Shown in pieces: positions 184 through 8,380 of a DNA stretch of 9,856 bases. Location of the stretch: the IMG/VR virus record IMGVR_UViG_2695420526_000009. The stretch is one strand, 5' to 3'. Source of the DNA: a virus (Duplodnaviria; Heunggongvirae; Uroviricota; Caudoviricetes). The notes under the pieces were generated by a model. That model had not been told where the DNA came from, searched no databases, and saw nothing but the letters and a program-made list of their open reading frames with translations. A program made the translations under genes and the position numbers. Each line of letters opens with the position of its first letter. Position 1 is the stretch's first letter.

Positions 184-1266
184 TCATTTTCTCTGGCTGA
201 TCTTTACCGGATAACCATCCCGAAGATCAATTAAGTGCTCCGGTTCAGAAGCAAACCATGCATAAGATCCCCACGCCAATTCTGGTATTGCCTTTTTAAA
301 AGGCAGAGCACTTCTGTCCATAAATGCCGTAAGGAATGCAAGATTTTTCTCGCTGAACCCAGCGTCAATAGCCAAATGAGTGAGAGTAACTTTTCGTTCC
401 CTGTTTATAGGCCCATCTGTCGCAACTACTTCAGTGAAAACTACAAGCATGTCCGAACCCGTTCGGTCCTCTCCCAAATCAATCAAAATAATATCTGGAA
501 GTGCTTTTGAGGCATCAATATTCAGCCCCAATGCTTTTGCCAATACATCATCCTGAGCAACAACTTTATTCCCGGATTCAGACAACCAGAGCACAGTTGG
601 ATTCTTAAGAAAATTAGGAGCAAAAACTTCGATGACGGCCTTAGCTATTGTACTTGACGGGCCCGGAGCTAAAGTTCTCTTCTCTCCATTTGGGAAAGTG
701 ACGACTACGGCATCAGCAGCAATCACTGCCCCTGATTTCAATAAACGCAACCTAGCAAGAGCGGCTTTGTTCAAATGATTTTCTTGCCAGGAACTTATTG
801 CACTCAGCAGCGAATCTCCTTCAAGCCCGGCATCAAAGAGTGCTGCAAAAGAGCGATTCAAACTGTAACGAGGACGAGAGGATGTGGTGGGTATACCTTT
901 ACGCTCAACAATTGCATTGCAAGGTATTAGGCCATTTTTTATAGTTTCATCACGTATTGGCTCACGCGTATTTTCCGCATACCATGCATCAGCAGGCCTT
1001 ATCTTTTGTTTAGAGAAAGTCATCTTTACCCAGCTTTCTCTGGACGCATCATCAGTAAGAGCAGCCTGCGAATCTCCCATACTTACAACCTGGCTGGGCC
1101 TTATCCATCGCCCCAGCCCCTCAACCGCACCAGCATAAAACATGACAAAAATTGTTTTTGCAGCTATTTCCCGAATTAAATATCCACGATTCTCAGTCCC
1201 TTCAGGGAAAATTAATTGTAATCTTTCCCGGATAACATTCAATGGGGGAACAACAGGCAGATTCAT
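184..1266 (-). CDS. Putative Type II restriction endonuclease (BsuBI/PstI-like), 360 aa
   Basis: Uninterrupted 360-aa ORF. Its ATG (1266) overlaps the stop of the upstream methyltransferase in an ATGA junction (1263-1266), indicating translational coupling. Position immediately downstream of an N6-adenine MTase fits an M-R operon. BsuBI/PstI family assignment is from recalled similarity of the N-terminal region, not a search; no PD-(D/E)xK motif was positively identified by eye. Confidence 0.55.
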   Translation of the reverse strand: MNLPVVPPLNVIRERLQLIFPEGTENRGYLIREIAAKTIFVMFYAGAVEGLGRWIRPSQVVSMGDSQAALTDDASRESWVKMTFSKQKIRPADAWYAENTREPIRDETIKNGLIPCNAIVERKGIPTTSSRPRYSLNRSFAALFDAGLEGDSLLSAISSWQENHLNKAALARLRLLKSGAVIAADAVVVTFPNGEKRTLAPGPSSTIAKAVIEVFAPNFLKNPTVLWLSESGNKVVAQDDVLAKALGLNIDASKALPDIILIDLGEDRTGSDMLVVFTEVVATDGPINRERKVTLTHLAIDAGFSEKNLAFLTAFMDRSALPFKKAIPELAWGSYAWFASEPEHLIDLRDGYPVKISQRK

Positions 1267-3095
1267 GCAATCATCACTCCATAGAAACCAGCGATAGTTC
1301 TCTCAATAATCCGTCTGTGGACGCCAGCATCAATTAACGATTGAATCTCCATCACCTGCTCCAGAGAAGGCAACGGGATTGAATTCAATTCATAGGCCGA
1401 AACAGCAACACTTCCGCTTATACACCTGAACGCCCGATCGACAACATGCGAATTAAGTAGCATATCAATAACATCAGGGCGAACCGCAGAGAACAATCCG
1501 TTTGAATATACAATATTAATATGGTTTTCAACTACTACGCCACCAGTTTCATCTATAAATCCCTGAGGTAAAATTGCCGCTAAAATCCTTCTGTCCTGTT
1601 CCTTCGATGTTGTCCGCTGAACAAGCACACATTCAGATTTTGTCACAAGGAAACCCTGTTGTGGGGTTATATCGATATAGGGAACATGATTTTTTCTGTC
1701 TGCACTAAAACGAAAACCAGCTGAAGTTATTGATTCCGCCCAGACTAATGGGTAGCTATTTTTTCCTTTCGTCGTACGCAACTGCGACTTAAATCGATTC
1801 CAGACTAACTGACCTGTAGAGACTGAGTATCCCAGATCAGCTAAACGCGTAGACATCTGTTTTAATACATTAAGAAAACAGGCATCATCTTTAACGCGTG
1901 GCAAAAGCCACGTTGCTCCACCTTTTTCTATATCAACATTACCTATTTTCTCAATTTTTGCTTTGTTCAACCCCTTAGGGACAAGTGAGGATACCTGGGC
2001 CCGAACTTTATGTTCTCCCGCCTTGAATGCTGTCAACATTGTTTCCTGGAGAACATCGTCAAAGACCCCATCCCTGTCAGTGACGAAATCAAGGGCATAC
2101 GGAGTAGTTTTTTCGGTCAAAAGGGTTCGCAGCGCGGTGAAATACTGCCCACCAAGAAAAGAAGTTGGCGTAAGAAATGCAATAACTCCTGTTTTCTCTT
2201 TAACCATGCGAACAGCTAAGTCGGTGAACAATCCATATAGATTTGCATGACCAAATAACGAACGAGAATATTTTTCTCTCGTTTTAATATCGAGAGTGAC
2301 ACGTCCGTAAGGCGGATTCCCTACCACAAGATCATAACCAGAAAATTTATCTTGCTGAAGCGCATCAGCAACAATAATTGTATCTTCAGGCAATCTACGT
2401 TTTACCTTTACACATAGTGGCATTAGTACAGATTCGAGCAATACCAAACTCATCCAAGCCGCAAATGGATCGATCTCTATCCCCTTTAAACGACGACTGA
2501 TTCTCCTCAACATCCATTCAGGGGAAGACCCCTTGTCTTTTTTTAACATTCGAATGGCTACTGGTGCCAAAAATGCACCGCCACCACACGCAGGATCAAT
2601 AACCGATGCATGAGAAAAATCAACACCAGACTTTTCAGCCAGGTCCAAGAGACGCGCTACCAAAGGTGGGGGGGTATAGTAAGCCCCCAATTCCGAACGG
2701 TAAGCGGATGGCAGCATTACCGTATAAATTGACCCAATCAGATATCCAGCGTCCTCCGCCGGAAATTGAGCAATAAGCTCACCTGTTCGTTCAGCGAGCT
2801 CGCGTGCATCACATGGAATGTCTTCTATGTAAACAGTGTGCGGTACTGCCCTCATTTTAATGCTGCTTTTTTGCTTTTTTGCAAGGGTATCCCAATATGC
2901 AGCTACGATGCTGAAGCAGTATGAGCGGGCATGCATCAACCTTGACTGCCCGGTTTTGTAATTGCCCGCATAACCTTTGGCCATGGCTTTACAAGTTTGA
3001 TATCTTTCCAGATTAGAAAACTCATTATCTGTAAAAAAATCAAAATGTTGCACATTCATAATGTAAAATCCTAATGTATCAAACATGCGGGCCAT
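1263..3095 (-). CDS. N6-adenine DNA methyltransferase, gamma class (Eco57I/PstI-like amino-MTase), 610 aa
   Basis: Translation contains GAYYTP (aa ~137-142), SAM-binding motif I VIDPACGGGAFL (aa 165-176, nt 2577-2597 verified by back-translation) and catalytic motif IV VVGNPPYGR (aa 257-265, NPPY at nt 2307-2318 verified). Motif I preceding motif IV is the gamma-class order. Start is ambiguous: ATG 3095 has no clear SD; an in-frame ATG 12 codons downstream (MNVQ...) has AGGA 9 nt upstream. Confidence 0.85.
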   Translation of the reverse strand: MARMFDTLGFYIMNVQHFDFFTDNEFSNLERYQTCKAMAKGYAGNYKTGQSRLMHARSYCFSIVAAYWDTLAKKQKSSIKMRAVPHTVYIEDIPCDARELAERTGELIAQFPAEDAGYLIGSIYTVMLPSAYRSELGAYYTPPPLVARLLDLAEKSGVDFSHASVIDPACGGGAFLAPVAIRMLKKDKGSSPEWMLRRISRRLKGIEIDPFAAWMSLVLLESVLMPLCVKVKRRLPEDTIIVADALQQDKFSGYDLVVGNPPYGRVTLDIKTREKYSRSLFGHANLYGLFTDLAVRMVKEKTGVIAFLTPTSFLGGQYFTALRTLLTEKTTPYALDFVTDRDGVFDDVLQETMLTAFKAGEHKVRAQVSSLVPKGLNKAKIEKIGNVDIEKGGATWLLPRVKDDACFLNVLKQMSTRLADLGYSVSTGQLVWNRFKSQLRTTKGKNSYPLVWAESITSAGFRFSADRKNHVPYIDITPQQGFLVTKSECVLVQRTTSKEQDRRILAAILPQGFIDETGGVVVENHINIVYSNGLFSAVRPDVIDMLLNSHVVDRAFRCISGSVAVSAYELNSIPLPSLEQVMEIQSLIDAGVHRRIIERTIAGFYGVMIA

Positions 3096-3154
3096 AACAT
3101 CTCATGGTGGCGCATAGCAAACTGGCCCGAAGAATATCACGCACCAAGTCGATC

Positions 3155-3170
3155 TCATAACCCGTTATGA
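3155..3170. promoter_or_regulatory. Perfect inverted repeat TCATAAC-CC-GTTATGA upstream of the methyltransferase start
   Basis: 7-bp perfect arms with a 2-bp centre, about 60-75 bp upstream (minus-strand sense) of the M gene start within the 3096-3309 intergenic region. Candidate operator or promoter-associated site; no binding protein identified. Confidence 0.3.
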
Positions 3171-3309
3171 CAATAAATCTTTGTAGCTGAACTCACTTGG
3201 TGATTTGTCAATCATTCCTGGCCTCCAGTTCGTCCTGAATCTCTTTATCGAGTTCACCGTATTTGTTAGTCCTCATCACTCACGACTTGACTTCCAGAAA
3301 TAACCTTGA

Positions 3310-3666
3310 TTATTCGGGGCTATATTTTGTCACCCTGCGTATCCGCGCTTTCGCATTACGCTCAATCTGGATTAGCTTTTCTATATTTTTTCGCCTTTCC
3401 CGCTCCTCCTGGCGCAAGAGCCTTACATCATCTGCCAGTCTGGTTTCTCTTTTCGCCACAGAGAGCATCCAGTCAAATGGCTCCACAACTGCACCGCAAA
3501 TTTTACAGCGGACCTGACGCTCTTTTTCGTCAACCCGTACAGAGGCGTGATGGCAATATGGTCTTTCCGATGGCTCATAAAGAAAATTAACCTGATTACG
3601 AGGGTTATCCTCTTTTACCGGAAATAAAACAATATTGCTTAACTCATCTTCTGGTTTTATTTCCAT
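3310..3666 (-). CDS. Hypothetical Cys/His-containing protein, 118 aa
   Basis: ATG at 3666 preceded by strong SD AAGGAGAGGAGC. Contains C-H-H ... C-x2-C cluster (RPYCHHASV...RCKICGAV) and a basic, coiled-coil-like C-terminus (RLLRQEERERRKNIEKLIQIERNAKARIRR). The longer ORF from the track (to 3723) is rejected because the SD sits just before the internal ATG. Confidence 0.6.
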   Translation of the reverse strand: MEIKPEDELSNIVLFPVKEDNPRNQVNFLYEPSERPYCHHASVRVDEKERQVRCKICGAVVEPFDWMLSVAKRETRLADDVRLLRQEERERRKNIEKLIQIERNAKARIRRVTKYSPE

Positions 3667-3723
3667 GCTCCTCTCCTTTGATGCGAATGCCAGCGGTAAT
3701 TGAAGCCTGATAGCTAATTTCAC

Positions 3724-4113
3724 TCACAGTACCGCCTCCTGAAAATCACCCTGATAGAAAGCCGGTACACGCTGCATAACTTCACTCTTCCGGCACTCGC
3801 GACAGATTATGTTCTGATGTCTGTCGTAGCGGCGTATTTCTCCGTCCGGTAATGACCAGATAAGGTCCGGATCAACCACAGATGGTTTCTTCAGCTTTGC
3901 CCTCGAGAGTTTTTTGCGGGCGTTTTGCCAGTCCTTACGCGCCTGTTCAGACGGGAATAACCCGTAACCAGAGTTGTATACATCGCCACTGGCAACCAGC
4001 TCTCTGGCGAGAACACTCATCAGATATCTTGTCGCACCTGTCTTGGCTTCCAGTTGCCGCAACGTCTCGCGACCGCTCAGACGTACAAGTTCAACAACCT
4101 GCCCTTTAATTTT
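3724..4113 (-). pseudogene. 5'-truncated copy of a phage gene (paralog of 4249-4431), N-terminus replaced by an IS end
   Basis: Reading frame is open from the IS boundary (4113) to the stop at 3724; it encodes ...KIKGQVVELVRLSGRETLRQLEAKTGATRYLMSVLARELVASGDVYNSGY..., matching the N-terminal region of the gene at 4249-4431 but lacking its first ~11 codons, which are replaced by IS sequence. Confidence 0.6.
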
Positions 4114-4238
4114 TGAGGTAGCCTGAGTTTAACGGACACTCCTTCCTGAAATAGAATGGCATCAGAAGGAGCTAATAATGAGCAGAAAAACCCAACGTTA
4201 CTCTAAAGAGTTCAAAGCCGAAGCTGTCAGAACGGTTC
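4114..4238 (+). mobile_element. IS3-family insertion sequence left end (IS600-like), truncated by the scaffold gap
   Basis: Begins with TG (TGAGGTAGCCTGAGTTTAACGGACAC...), followed by an SD (AAGGAG) and ATG at 4178 opening orfA (MSRKTQRYSKEFKAEAVRTV...), which I recall as the IS600 OrfA N-terminus. The element stops at the N-run, typical of assembly collapse at a repeat. Confidence 0.75.
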
Positions 4239-4248
4239 NNNNNNNNNN
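4239..4248. other. Assembly/scaffold gap (10 N)
   Basis: Ten consecutive n characters in the sequence. Confidence 1.
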
Positions 4249-4431
4249 GTAGCCAGAGTTGTATACATCCCCACTGGCAACCAGCTCTCTGGCGAGAACG
4301 CTTATTAAATATCTTGTCGCCCCGGTTTTAGCTTCCAGTTGTCGTAACGTCTCGCGCCCACTCTGGCGTACGAGTTCAACAACCTGCCCCTTAATTTTTT
4401 CCCGCTCTTCCTGTGTAAATACTTTTGCCAT
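4249..4431 (-). CDS. Hypothetical phage protein, N-terminal 61 codons (partial; 3' end lost at gap)
   Basis: ATG at 4431 (MAKVFTQEEREKIKGQVVELVRQSGRETLRQLEAKTGATRYLISVLARELVASGDVYNSGY), GGGGG SD-like stretch upstream, 15 nt after the stop of the preceding gene. The track ORF 4198-4446 reads through the N-run and IS and is an artefact. Confidence 0.6.
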
Positions 4432-4446: not shown

Positions 4447-5172
4447 TCACTTTTCCGACACAATACGACCGGAGGAATCGACAATCTGTCGAACAATATC
4501 CCGGTGCTTGTTCAGCTCCCGCAACGCGGCGCAGACACGCTCCCACTTCTGGACATGACTTTTCGCCCGACGCAGTTCGCGGTTTGCCATATGCAGCGAT
4601 GGTAAAACCAGGTCATCCGCTTGCGTTTCGGTGAACGATGGCAACGACTGCACAATGTCCGCCACAGTTTCTGTTTTAATTTCTTCCTGTGTTGCAGCTT
4701 CCTGTACCGGTAACGCAACACCTGCTGGCTGAGGAAAGACTTTACCATCCGTTTCCGCTATGGATGCGGCTTTCGGCTCTGCCGGTAAATCAGCGCCCGG
4801 TATGCAGTACCGAAATTTACCGCCCTGATTCACGCGAATCAGACGCCCTTTGCTGATTGCCATGGCCAGCGATGAATTCGCCCGGCGGGAGGTAATCCCG
4901 AACATCAGTGCCAGCTCATCCGCCGTTTGTGGGCCATGTTGTTCAATCGCCTCAGTCAGCATTTGCGCTGTCACTTTCGGTACCGGTGACACTGGTTCAC
5001 TTTCACCAGCCTGAATCAGCCACCACATCGAACCCTTGTTATCCGCTTCACCACGGCGCTTCAGTTTCCACAGTTCGTTGACCGCATCTTCACGGCTGAT
5101 TCCAAGGCGGGACGCCACCACATGTGAAGAGGCTCTTTTCAGTGCTTTCAGTGCGTCAAATACAGTTTCCAT
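4447..5172 (-). CDS. Hypothetical phage protein, 241 aa
   Basis: ATG at 5172 ([13 protein letters not shown]...) preceded by GGAGGATG SD; the track's longer start at 5190 is a TTG. Lies directly downstream of the DnaC-like gene in the same operon. No recognisable motif by eye. Confidence 0.7.
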
Positions 5173-5193
5173 TAAAACATCCTCCAACAAAAA

Positions 5194-5940
5194 TTACTTC
5201 ACAACTCCCGGAAAGCTGACATTTGAACGCCAGCTATCCCAGTTAAACGTCACCCACCGACAACCGTTCATGGTCATGCGGTCCATAATCCTCTCACCAA
5301 GAAGCGTGCTCATTGCGGCATGATTCAGGTTTGTTAACATCCCGACACTGCACAGTGATGCTGTCCGGCGATCAATTATCTGGTGCAATACCACCTGCTC
5401 GTTTTTCGTCTCCCGCTGAATGCCTATTTCATCCAGGACCAGCAAATCAACCCCGCAAAGCTCCTGTAAAAATTTTTCACCGGATTTGCCGTTGTCGTAG
5501 CTGTCATGCAACACGCTCATGACATCAGACTCGGTGACGATAATCACGCTGCGCCCCTTCGCCATCAGCCGGTTACCCATCGCCGCTGCAAGGTGATTTT
5601 TCCCGGTGCCGGTTTTACCGCTGAACACAAAATTCGTGCACCCGGTCATCAGTTCGTCAGCTATGGATTTGGCCTGGCTCAGCGCGTATTTTTGCCCGTC
5701 GTTCTGCACCTGATAATTCGCAAACGAGCATTTGCTGTGCAGAGGCTGGATGCCCGAACGATTCAGGATTTTTTCCACCCGCAACTGGCGATTCTGGCGG
5801 TTAATCTCCTCGCTGCGTTTTCGTCCTTCAGCAAGTTGCCATTCCCGCCACTCCTCCACCGTCCGGTACGGTGGAACCGCCCCCTGTGGTGCAAGTCTGT
5901 GAATACGTTCAAGAACCCCGGCTGCCGCAATGTTTTTCAT
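5194..5940 (-). CDS. DnaC-like replicative helicase loader (AAA+ ATPase; Rac YdaV-like), 248 aa
   Basis: Walker A FSGKTGTGKNHLAAAMG and Walker B DLLVLDEIG; near-collinear resemblance to E. coli DnaC as recalled (e.g. RSGI-PLH, FENY/FANY, GERVMDRM/GERIMDRM, FNWDSYRS/FNWDSWRS). Stop of the O-like gene is 6 nt upstream. Confidence 0.9.
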   Translation of the reverse strand: MKNIAAAGVLERIHRLAPQGAVPPYRTVEEWREWQLAEGRKRSEEINRQNRQLRVEKILNRSGIQPLHSKCSFANYQVQNDGQKYALSQAKSIADELMTGCTNFVFSGKTGTGKNHLAAAMGNRLMAKGRSVIIVTESDVMSVLHDSYDNGKSGEKFLQELCGVDLLVLDEIGIQRETKNEQVVLHQIIDRRTASLCSVGMLTNLNHAAMSTLLGERIMDRMTMNGCRWVTFNWDSWRSNVSFPGVVK

Positions 5941-5946
5941 GCCACA

Positions 5947-7011
5947 TCACCCCCTGAATCCCGGCGGAATTTCGGTATCCGGTTCAGAAATATGATTCAC
6001 ACAACGCTGGTTGTTCGTGCCGCTTACCGGGAGCAACCAGGGGTTTTCAAAATTCCGGTCCGGCCCAAAAAACGTCGTCGCTCGCTGAACAAATTCCGTT
6101 CCCGCTTTCCCGGTCGCCGCCAGGTATCTCGCGTAACGCCTCACACCATCCAGCATGGTCTCTGGTGGCACCCCCTCGCGCAATCTGGCCTTCCAGGCAC
6201 TGAATGCGGATTTCTTCGGGTTTGCCCCGGCACGCAACGGGTATTCCCGCCAGACCTGTTCGAACACATCCGGATAATCCACTCGTCCCACAGGCTGCCC
6301 GGTGTTTTCCGGGGCTACCCGATCGGCTTCCCGCTGAATGGCGGAATCGGCTTCAGGCTGCTGCAGTTGGAGTGATTGCTCCGGCCTTGCGGTCATCACC
6401 TGCTGCACAGCGCCCGAATCGGCTTTCAGCGCATACGCTGAATCGGCTTCCGGTGTCGAGCCTGCTGGCTGACCAGGATTGACGGTCTGAACATCCCCTG
6501 CCTGGTTCGTGGCGTTTTTTACGCCATGGACCATAGTGTTTTGATCTTCTTTATCTGTATCTTTATCTGTATCTGTCGTGACTCGTCGTGACATGTGCGT
6601 GACATTTCGTGACGCGCCGTGACAATCGCCATTTTGTTCCCGCTTTCTTTCCCTCTCTCGCTGCGCCCTCTTGCGCTCTGCAGGAGATTTTGCGGTTTGC
6701 GAAATATTGCCGTTGTCCTCTTTAAGCACCTGGCGTTTTTCCCATCCAGTGATTAAATCACCATCAAGTACCCGCCCCTGCATCGTCTGCAAAATTGAAT
6801 CAATTACCTCTTCTGTCACGTCGAGCGCACTTGCCAAATCTTCTGTCGTGACATCAATGTGACCTCGCGTGACATTTCGTGACGCGCTCACCAGGAGGTG
6901 GATATACACTGCCATCACTGTTGCAATTGGCTGCCCTGACACCCTGGCAATTGTTCGCCACTTAGGGTCATTTGGCATGTCATGCCATAATCTGAGCCAG
7001 GCGTTAGCCAT
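5947..7011 (-). CDS. Phage replication initiator, O-like (Rac YdaU-like), 354 aa
   Basis: Position between the YdaT-like gene and the DnaC-like loader. Iteron arrays lie inside the coding sequence, as with lambda O/ori. ATG at 7011 with GAGGTG SD-like sequence upstream; the track start at 7017 is GTG. The central region is low-complexity (TDTDKDTDKED) and encoded by the repeats. Confidence 0.75.
   Translation of the reverse strand: MANAWLRLWHDMPNDPKWRTIARVSGQPIATVMAVYIHLLVSASRNVTRGHIDVTTEDLASALDVTEEVIDSILQTMQGRVLDGDLITGWEKRQVLKEDNGNISQTAKSPAERKRAQRERERKREQNGDCHGASRNVTHMSRRVTTDTDKDTDKEDQNTMVHGVKNATNQAGDVQTVNPGQPAGSTPEADSAYALKADSGAVQQVMTARPEQSLQLQQPEADSAIQREADRVAPENTGQPVGRVDYPDVFEQVWREYPLRAGANPKKSAFSAWKARLREGVPPETMLDGVRRYARYLAATGKAGTEFVQRATTFFGPDRNFENPWLLPVSGTNNQRCVNHISEPDTEIPPGFRG
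6549..6623. repeat. Origin-like region: tandem 12-bp AT-rich repeat (CTTTATCTGTAT x2) followed by five CGTGAC iterons at ~10-bp spacing
   Basis: CTTTATCTGTAT at 6549-6560 and 6561-6572; CGTGAC at 6577, 6587, 6598, 6608 and 6618 (one helical turn apart), all within the O-like gene. Confidence 0.6.
6846..6887. repeat. Second iteron cluster (four (T/C)GTGAC copies), sharing an exact 21-bp block with the first
   Basis: CGTGAC/TGTGAC at 6847, 6858, 6868 and 6878; GCGTGACATTTCGTGACGCGC occurs at both 6597-6617 and 6867-6887. Confidence 0.5.
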
Positions 7012-7845: not shown

Positions 7846-7879
7846 CAAAGTGATTAGCAATCTTATTAGAATTGGATGT

Positions 7880-8380
7880 ATGAAAAGAAAATCATTGTCA
7901 GACACCGACCTCAACGCCGCCAGAAGACTGAAAGAAATCTGGATGGCAAAGAAATCTCAGTTGGGATTGACTCAGGAACGTGCGGCGGAAATTATGGGGT
8001 TTTCAACACAAGGGGCGGTAAGTCACTACCTAAATGGTCAAACCCCACTAAACCTTGAGGCTGTTCTAAAGTTTGCTGGCTTACTGAAAGTTCCCCCTGA
8101 GTCAATCAGGCCAGACATGGTAGATTTGCTGCAAATTGCAAGGATGTATTGTCGAGAACCACAGCAAGATAACATAGTCGCATTACCAGCAGACACAGAA
8201 CAAACAGAGGATGAACTACCGTTTGCCGTAGAGCCGATGGAACGAGATTTAATCCATACGTTCAGAGCTTTTCCGAAAGAAGATCAAGAACACATGCTTC
8301 AGGAGATGAAAGATAAAAAAGAATCAATGGATCGTACGGTTGCGCGGTGGTTAGCTGCACAAAAAGGCCGTCGCGCCTAA
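7880..8380 (+). CDS. Prophage repressor, XRE-family HTH (RacR-like), 166 aa
   Basis: HTH LGLTQERAAEIMGFSTQGAVSHYLNGQTPL near the N-terminus; no S24 peptidase (LexA-like) domain visible, consistent with RacR-type rather than cI-type repressors. ATG 7880 (MKRKSLSD...) preferred over the track's GTG at 7850. Confidence 0.8.
   Translation: MKRKSLSDTDLNAARRLKEIWMAKKSQLGLTQERAAEIMGFSTQGAVSHYLNGQTPLNLEAVLKFAGLLKVPPESIRPDMVDLLQIARMYCREPQQDNIVALPADTEQTEDELPFAVEPMERDLIHTFRAFPKEDQEHMLQEMKDKKESMDRTVARWLAAQKGRRA

Follow-up and report, generated by a model that had tools for sequence, protein, structure and literature searches.

Paired iteron arrays inside a phage replication-initiator gene and a candidate two-part intragenic origin

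Why should the replication-initiator gene of a phage carry the same short repeat in two separate clusters, one of them within the stretch that encodes its own DNA-binding domain? The question is raised by the virus record IMGVR_UViG_2695420526_000009 (Caudoviricetes) of IMG/VR, of which the whole stretch of 9,856 bp, referred to here as the window, was analyzed. A first-pass annotation had described two clusters of CGTGAC in this gene that share an exact 21-bp block, and had likened the arrangement to the origin of phage lambda. We found that both clusters are kept at the same gene positions in related initiators, that selection acts there on the DNA itself, that the motif changes in step in both of them and that they are inherited together with the N-terminal module of the protein. 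Judged from sequence comparison, the gene probably holds a two-part origin, in which the two arrays would act as cooperating binding sites for the initiator. The elements concerned are:

5947 to 7011, minus strand: replication-initiator gene, 354 aa, ATG at 7011 and stop codon at 5947-5949 (open reading frame list and translation)
6847 to 6883, minus strand: array A, four direct copies, GTCACG at gene nt 129, 139 and 160 and GTCACA at nt 149
6815 to 6820, plus strand: inverted iteron copy, gene nt 192-197, 32 bp downstream of array A in gene orientation
6577 to 6623, minus strand: array B, five direct GTCACG copies at gene nt 389, 399, 409, 420 and 430
6540 to 6576, coding strand: AT-rich tandem hexamer/12-mer (GATACAGATAAA)n, which encodes (DT/DK)n and directly abuts array B

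The hexamer CGTGAC, which reads GTCACG on the coding strand, occurs nine times in the window, compared to 3.3 +/- 1.7 expected copies, and none of 200 shuffled sequences reached nine. All nine copies fall in 6577-6883. By an arithmetic estimate, the chance that nine random sites in 9856 bp all lie within 307 bp is about 1e-11. On the plus strand the copies are located at 6577, 6587, 6598, 6608 and 6618 with a spacing of 10/11/10/10 bp, and at 6847, 6868 and 6878 with a one-mismatch TGTGAC at 6858. In gene orientation this corresponds to spacings of 10/10/11 bp in array A and 10/10/11/10 bp in array B, and Tandem Repeats Finder reported a 10-bp periodic array at 6575-6624. Both 6597-6617 and 6867-6887 contain the 21-mer GCGTGACATTTCGTGACGCGC without mismatch; about 1e-5 such repeats would be expected by chance in a sequence of this length (arithmetic estimate). 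The repeat search therefore bears out the two clusters with their shared 21-bp block as well as the helical-turn spacing of the five copies at 6577-6623, and the distance between the clusters, previously given as about 270 bp, was measured as 260-270 bp. The repeats are arranged head-to-tail with a period of 10-11 bp and a non-palindromic 6-bp core, and as the copies recur every 10-11 bp they all lie on one face of the helix.

Over its entire length, the gene product matches PHROG 3729 'replication initiation protein' (E = 3e-250), with weak PHROG matches to replisome organiser and DnaD-like families. When residues 1-156 were scanned alone, the best Pfam family was PF09681 Phage_rep_org_N, the SPP1-type replisome-organiser N-domain, with a sub-threshold match (E = 0.015, 15.7 bits at a cut-off of 23.3) of residues 5-123 to positions 1-119 of the 121 in the profile. 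No signature of Rep_3 (the winged-helix family of RepA, pi and RepE) or of a primase-helicase was among the Pfam matches of the initiator, and BLASTP against SPP1 gp38 gave no significant similarity. The protein is composed of an N-terminal winged-helix module, a basic helix, a disordered linker and a C-terminal module. The last 24 codons (5947-6018; ...EPDTEIPPGFRG) match the C-terminus of primosomal DnaT (NCBIfam NF002770, E = 0.0016).

To locate the repeats on the protein, an AlphaFold2 (AF2) model of residues 1-156 was used, which has a mean predicted local distance difference test score (pLDDT) of 73.7 and a core above 90. It shows helices at residues 2-14, 16-25, 29-45, 56-63, 67-77 and 110-127 (the latter basic), a loop at 46-55 and a beta wing. 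The helix-turn-helix is formed by 56-63 and 67-77, and residues 130-156 are disordered (pLDDT < 50). Array A encodes residues 43-55 (ASRNVTRGHIDVT), i.e., the end of helix 3 and the loop before the helix-turn-helix, and the inverted copy encodes D64-V65-T66, the turn of the helix-turn-helix. Array B (residues about 130-145) and the AT-rich repeat encode the disordered linker. It had been proposed in the first-pass annotation that the iterons force a repetitive, low-complexity linker onto the protein. This is supported, and the claim even reaches further, as the repeats also fix codons inside the folded DNA-binding domain.

Are both arrays a general feature of this initiator family? One genome per species was scanned, which gave 49 loci with relatives of the N-domain at 43-97% identity and a locus GC content of 33-69%. 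The hosts include Escherichia, Serratia, Rahnella, Pseudomonas, Bordetella and Acidovorax as well as Aquitalea, Chromobacterium, Gilvimarinus, Janthinobacterium, Sphingomonas and others. Both arrays were detected at matching gene positions in 38 of the 49 loci, over a range of locus GC of 34-69%. Array classes were called by class counts; de novo calling of periodic hexamers was confounded by the AT-rich repeat. The comparison with homologues that had been suggested for the two clusters thus did not refute the proposal, which would have failed if one cluster alone were conserved: both are kept, at the same positions of the gene, in prophages of beta- and gammaproteobacteria. In the array-bearing loci, neighbouring copies are 10-11 bp apart at 85 of 107 intervals in array A and at 81 of 104 in array B. 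The inverted copy is found at the matching gene position in 14/24 other loci with the GTCACG motif, if a 12-nt register shift is allowed, which applies to loci matched from residue 5. Across the family arrays A and B tend to be present or absent together.

In IMG/VR the scan gave near-identical E. coli copies only, which inform on polymorphism and not on diversity, and 74 of 80 of them show the arrangement with four and five copies. The two arrays of the Escherichia locus L002 and of E. albertii (L005) differ from this by an in-frame 21-bp insertion, which adds two extra copies to array A. The AT-rich repeat varies in length, with 18, 24 or 30 nt among the 80 IMG/VR copies and an additional 42 bp in L001.

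Some of the relatives recovered in the scan lack both arrays (L030, L032, L041-L043, L045 and L051). They keep the loop of the protein in the form xEERG, and the DNA encoding it is non-repetitive. In two of them, L042 from Serratia (3001-4191) and L051 from Pantoea (3001-4305), the N-domain is fused to a different middle region, which by eye resembles a GIY-YIG-like segment and holds TACTACGTAG-type repeats.

A conserved repeat in a coding sequence may reflect the protein and not the DNA. Array A could be a by-product of an in-frame duplication of the linker or of gene conversion, or the peptide SRNVT could be conserved for protein function. ASRNVT is indeed encoded in both arrays in the same frame, the 21-bp block is identical, and S44, V47, T48, R49 and G50 are invariant across 73 proteins. 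However, the codons speak for the DNA. Among 22 genes with the GTCACG motif, the array A residues V47 (GTC), T48 (ACG), G50 (GGT), H51 (CAC), D53 (GAT) and V54 (GTC) are each encoded by one codon, as are H131 (CAC), S141 (TCA) and V144 (GTC) in array B, and V65 under the inverted copy is GTG in 19/19 sequences. The synonymous sites are thus frozen under the hexamers, whereas they are free in the spacer codon: R49, located between two hexamers, uses four codons. Invariant residues outside the arrays (R7, L8, P13, T20, V32, G89 and R93) use four to six synonymous codons. Successive copies lie in different reading frames and all copies together are spread over the three codon phases (128/82/80), and therefore the array is not a peptide repeat. 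In the AT-rich repeat, GAT and AAA codons are retained even at a locus GC of 66-69%. Codon freezing, codon phases and the retention of AT-rich codons show that selection acts on the DNA sequence itself. Because the iteron sites overlap the coding sequence, this selection fixes the codons and hence the amino acids (SRNVTRGH..VT; CH..SRNVT). The array-less relatives, which retain the loop on non-repetitive DNA, also argue against a peptide requirement.

The most informative variation is found in the motif itself. Three motif classes were distinguished, GTCACG (24 loci), GTAACG (5) and CGAACG (9), and the class is identical in arrays A and B in 38/38 array-bearing loci. The classes are scattered on a neighbour-joining tree of the residues that are not encoded by the arrays, a short alignment of which the topology is only indicative. 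The clearest switch is seen in the Erwinia locus L028 (12 copies of GTCACG), which stands beside its sisters from Pantoea (L024) and Enterobacter (L026) with seven copies of GTAACG each. In L026 also the inverted copy has switched with the class and reads CGTTAC. In the GTAACG class (L024, L026, L035, L039 and L040) no copy lies in the codon phase that would give a TAA stop; the avoided phase is a direct trace of the coding constraint. Three of these loci (L035, L039 and L040) have two array A copies only. Overlapping inverted copies, which form palindromes (GTAACGTTAC, GTCACGTGAC), are additionally present in L024, L026 and L028.

Could the identity of the two arrays have been produced by recombination? 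For the bipartite arrangement, either two binding regions or a recombinational duplication had been considered. In the GTCACG class the mean longest string shared by A and B is 11.8 nt within a locus and 10.2 nt between loci, so that the identity within a locus is not clearly above that between loci. Recent gene conversion between the arrays was therefore rejected as the source of the 21-bp identity, and as the layout is old a recent duplication is unlikely. With the joint class switches, the codon data and the frame data, the explanation of array A as a by-product is largely refuted, and we regard it as the least probable of all the alternatives.

If the arrays are DNA sites, which protein would bind them? 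The neighbours of the initiator gene differ among the loci: downstream there is a DnaC-like or lambda-P-like loader, a DnaB-like helicase or an unknown gene, and upstream there are regulators, an HNH endonuclease or likewise unknown genes. Only the N-domain in which the arrays are embedded accompanies them throughout. This makes the initiator the natural candidate. Its assignment as the binder rests on inference, and one could instead imagine that the hexamers are bound by a host protein or by a phage regulator of the CII/YdaT-like or Cro-like type, all the more as 10-bp direct repeats resemble sites of activators of the lambda CII type. Several observations are difficult to reconcile with this. 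The flanking genes vary among loci that keep the arrays, the hosts span beta- and gammaproteobacteria, and the classes differ among close relatives (Erwinia, Pantoea and Enterobacter). In E. coli the arrays and the N-domain are passed on as a single block. Finally, the position of the arrays corresponds to that at which lambda O and SPP1 gp38 bind within their own genes (PMC6022878; PMC6316719). Binding by another factor is thus improbable, and the two arrays are very likely functional initiator-binding sites of an intragenic origin, as far as this can be read from sequence.

The exchange as one unit is visible at a junction close to the AT-rich repeat, which is followed by an inverted repeat:

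6542 to 6554: mosaic junction, where the N-module with both arrays and the AT-rich repeat swaps as one unit
6503 to 6533: imperfect inverted repeat with a 13-bp stem, inside the coding sequence of the C-terminal module, 7 nt from the AT-rich repeat

Partial matches in E. coli genomes end at query positions 596 or 608. In L002 and L003 the N-module and the arrays are joined to a C-module with a DnaT DNA-binding domain and are accompanied by a lambda-P-like loader, and in L055 the C-module found in the window is fused to an unrelated N-module. The C-terminal module is common to the initiators of Shiga toxin (Stx) phages, phiP27, SfV and phages of Vibrio and Burkholderia.

The AT-rich repeat at this junction is a probable DNA-unwinding element. 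The GC content of 30% at 6540-6579 is the lowest value of the gene, and Tandem Repeats Finder reported a 12-bp repeat at 6548-6574 (2.2 copies, 100% match), which can also be read as a 6-bp unit with 4.8 copies; the tandem 12-bp AT-rich repeat noted earlier beside the five-copy cluster is therefore real. In lambda a palindrome after the AT-rich region forms a third origin element. The stem at 6503-6533 is strong in the window, with a DNA fold of -10.9 kcal/mol (z = -5.3), and may, at low confidence, be an accessory element of the origin. A comparable stem is not general in homologues, as only 2/26 loci score <= 0.05 versus control windows, and a conserved third element was therefore rejected. 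By its shape the stem resembles a terminator with a T-run on the plus strand. A scan for promoters and terminators gave sites that were no more numerous than in shuffled sequence.

A second origin located elsewhere in the phage would also be conceivable. Phage Tritos, whose complete genome has 46 kb, shows no GTCACG clusters besides arrays A and B, and its 16 other copies are single and scattered. With no remote cluster in Tritos, a distant second origin like oriR of SPP1 is absent. The initiator gene of Tritos (L053, 32105-33638) is 97.6% identical in nucleotide sequence. It has no adjacent DnaC-like loader gene, and a 140-aa hypothetical gene is found in its place; from this gene content, the Tritos initiator could perhaps work with loading factors of the host.

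On the basis of these data the following model is proposed. The N-terminal winged-helix domain would bind the iterons with their 6-bp core in both arrays. Bound to array B, the initiator would melt the adjoining AT-rich repeat, and its C-terminal module would bring in the helicase via the DnaC-like loader encoded next to it, which is presumed to be the partner of this module. Array A, with four copies and the inverted copy inside the coding sequence of the DNA-binding domain, would be a second set of sites for the same initiator. It could cooperate with array B by looping or wrapping the intervening DNA of about 230 bp, or by raising the local initiator concentration, and this cooperation would help the assembly of the complex and the opening of the origin. 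The cooperative part (loop or wrap) is put forward tentatively and with less conviction than the identity of the sites.

The main rival accepts array A as real initiator-binding sites and assigns it to control. It might be a roadblock to, or an autoregulator of, the transcription that passes through the initiator and loader genes, or it might limit re-initiation by titrating the initiator or by pairing two origins (handcuffing), as is the case for the control iterons of the plasmids P1 and F. The conservation and motif switching of array A are shared by this reading and the main model. It adjoins no AT-rich element, and many related initiator genes carry the linker array and the AT-rich repeat only, which may suffice for firing. 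The variable distance between the arrays suits a function without precise geometry, and iteron plasmids have two-array layouts with a control array. On the other hand, a lytic or induced phage gains little by limiting its copy number, and array A is located about 700-800 bp downstream of the divergent region of the repressor and cro-like genes, far from the promoter. Furthermore, the joint presence or absence of A and B suggests a single machine, and an unrelated N-module described below has its two arrays at a similar distance, about 256 bp. The data do not separate the control role from the cooperative one; we consider control unlikely on balance, yet the strongest of the alternatives.

Two extensions of the cooperative model go beyond it. 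In the first, the arrays form one obligatory machine, in which the association of A and B loops or wraps the approximately 230 bp encoding the DNA-binding domain and thereby melts the AT-rich repeat. This is doubtful. In the second, the protein loop encoded by array A may help to read the iteron, so that site and reading head share nucleotides and change together. With the loop as reader, the residues that differ between classes would be concentrated in the loop and not in the recognition helix, and the class-associated columns are mostly the array-encoded loop and residues 96-110.

Several results weigh against the model of two cooperating initiator-binding arrays. The Pfam scan of the initiator gave no family at E <= 0.01, and a Foldseek search of the AF2 N-domain against the PDB returned only generic winged-helix regulators (E > 0.1). 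In a mutual-information scan neither the recognition helix nor the wing showed class-specific residues, although class and phylogeny are partly confounded in these data. The distance from the first copy of A to the first copy of B varies between about 190 and 350 bp among the loci, and there is no evidence in it for a strict helical phasing of a loop. Searches of the gene for DnaA-box and IHF consensus sequences found no site and hence no support for a bent or looped complex. As the array-less relatives show, the fold of the protein does not depend on the arrays. In several other initiator families a single array is enough, so that array A may be dispensable or regulatory. In the open-access literature no binding or replication data were found for any member of the family. 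Taking all this together, the two-part origin with cooperating arrays is still the reading we prefer.

The genes around the initiator place the locus in a familiar setting:

5194 to 5940, minus strand: DnaC-like helicase-loader gene, directly downstream of the initiator gene (Pfam IstB_IS21 and Bac_DnaA)
7508 to 7083, minus strand: YdaT/CII-like gene, between the cro-like gene and the initiator gene
7795 to 7505, minus strand: cro-like helix-turn-helix gene, upstream of the initiator gene
7850 to 8380: repressor-like gene, divergent from the minus-strand genes
4447-5190, 3724-4062 and 3310-3723, minus strand: DUF1627, DUF977 and zinc-ribbon genes, after the loader gene
1263-3095, minus strand: Eco57I/N6-type DNA methylase gene, beside the restriction endonuclease gene
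184-1266, minus strand: BsuBI/PstI-family restriction endonuclease gene, like the methylase gene in the early region of the prophage, downstream of the replication genes

The loader gene was assigned by PHROG 50 'DnaC-like helicase loader' (E = 2e-79) and NCBIfam PRK12377 (E = 2e-150). The gene order is that of the early-right operon of a lambdoid, Rac-like E. coli prophage. The set of DUF1627, DUF977 and zinc-ribbon genes after the loader is also found in many E. coli prophages (L001-L003, L055). Judged by their sequence families, the two genes at 184-3095 look like a phage-borne restriction-modification cassette.

The locus is widespread. DNA of the initiator gene matches 2,504 of 5,426 complete E. 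coli genomes, of which 1,647 hold at least 80% of it, and seven E. coli phages of known sequence, among them Tritos and Evi, carry it as well. The open-access literature contained no description of the origin of this family, of an array overprinted on a DNA-binding domain, of codon freezing or of the 'MRDYAKVSPRFWLG...' module (see below), and a paper on the Stx replication region makes no mention of iterons or a replication origin. It appears that no member of the family has been studied experimentally. The dual coding has a consequence beyond replication, as it is selection on the DNA site that fixes the 'invariant' residues of the DNA-binding domain, and inferences from conservation or from the ratio of non-synonymous to synonymous substitution rates (dN/dS) would misread them. 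The frozen hexamers and the three classes offer a way to annotate origins and to predict replication-specificity groups of prophages, including relatives of Stx phages. For array A an experiment is at hand, since it can be destroyed by synonymous recoding with the protein unchanged.

How does this candidate origin compare to known systems? Intragenic origins composed of iterons and an AT-rich region inside initiator genes are textbook knowledge. The closest analogy is lambda, and of the likeness to its origin noted in the first-pass annotation one part holds, namely the distal cluster with its AT-rich repeat, while homology to O and the 18-bp palindromic iterons do not. Homology of the initiator to lambda O was not detectable, and its best family, PHROG 3729, is not a lambda O family. 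In lambda, the N-terminal part of O binds the iterons inside gene O and the C-terminal part binds P (PMC6022878). As in lambda, the candidate origin is placed within the initiator gene, at the boundary of the DNA-binding N-part and the loader-recruiting C-part, with the linker encoded by it, and an iteron cluster directly adjoins the AT-rich region. The positions are also similar, with array B and the AT-rich repeat at gene nt 389-470 (array B at 389-435) and the lambda iterons at nt 349-433 of O (GenBank). This makes array B the counterpart of ori-lambda and array A the additional element. Lambda differs in that it has P as the loader and a single cluster, whose four iterons are 18-bp inverted repeats that each bind a dimer of O, whereas the window has 10-11-bp direct repeats with a 6-bp core, a second array and a DnaC-like loader.

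In SPP1, gp38 binds direct repeats beside an AT-rich unwinding element inside gene 38, and the regions bound by it are two discrete ones (PMC6316719), oriL within gene 38 and oriR elsewhere. The repeats and the AT-rich run of gene 38 are located at gene nt about 360-450, which is similar to the window. However, the second region of SPP1, oriR, is intergenic and about 13 kb away, whereas the second array of the window is about 230 bp away in the same gene.

Two arrays of an initiator-binding repeat near the initiator gene are also known from the plasmids P1 (incC/incA) and F (incB/incC) and from phage P4 (ori/crr), where one array adjoins the unwinding region and the other is accessory or has a control function. 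The window likewise has two arrays, one of them at the unwinding region, but they are overprinted on the coding sequence. In P1, F and P4 the arrays are intergenic and the initiators belong to other families; P1 and F have longer repeats, and in P4 kilobases separate the two arrays.

A matching two-array layout was found in initiators with an unrelated N-module, 'MRDYAKVSPRFWLG...', which are encoded in an E. coli O157:H7 prophage (L055, 2501-3592, minus strand), a Klebsiella phage (L063, 925-1833) and the Stx1c phage phiSTEC1589 (L059, 889-1965), the distal array copies of the latter being inverted. BLAST of this N-module against that of the window gave no similarity. It carries two arrays of AAGGGGCTT with a period of 11 bp, one at gene nt about 177-207 and the other, some 256 bp away, at about 441-474, and the distal array is followed by a (GAACAG)n hexamer repeat. 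The C-terminal module, the two-array architecture and the subsequent hexamer repeat are therefore shared with the window, whereas the motif is quasi-palindromic, the proximal array is located later in the domain and the hexamer is GAACAG in place of GATAAA. Only the linker array is found in Stx1_499, DC1, phiP27, SfV, two Vibrio phages and SPP1 gene 38, and the GenBank record of lambda annotates one iteron cluster. The two-array layout is thus neither universal nor one-off: it is a design with a lambda-like core and an upstream array in the same gene, and it recurs in an unrelated initiator module.

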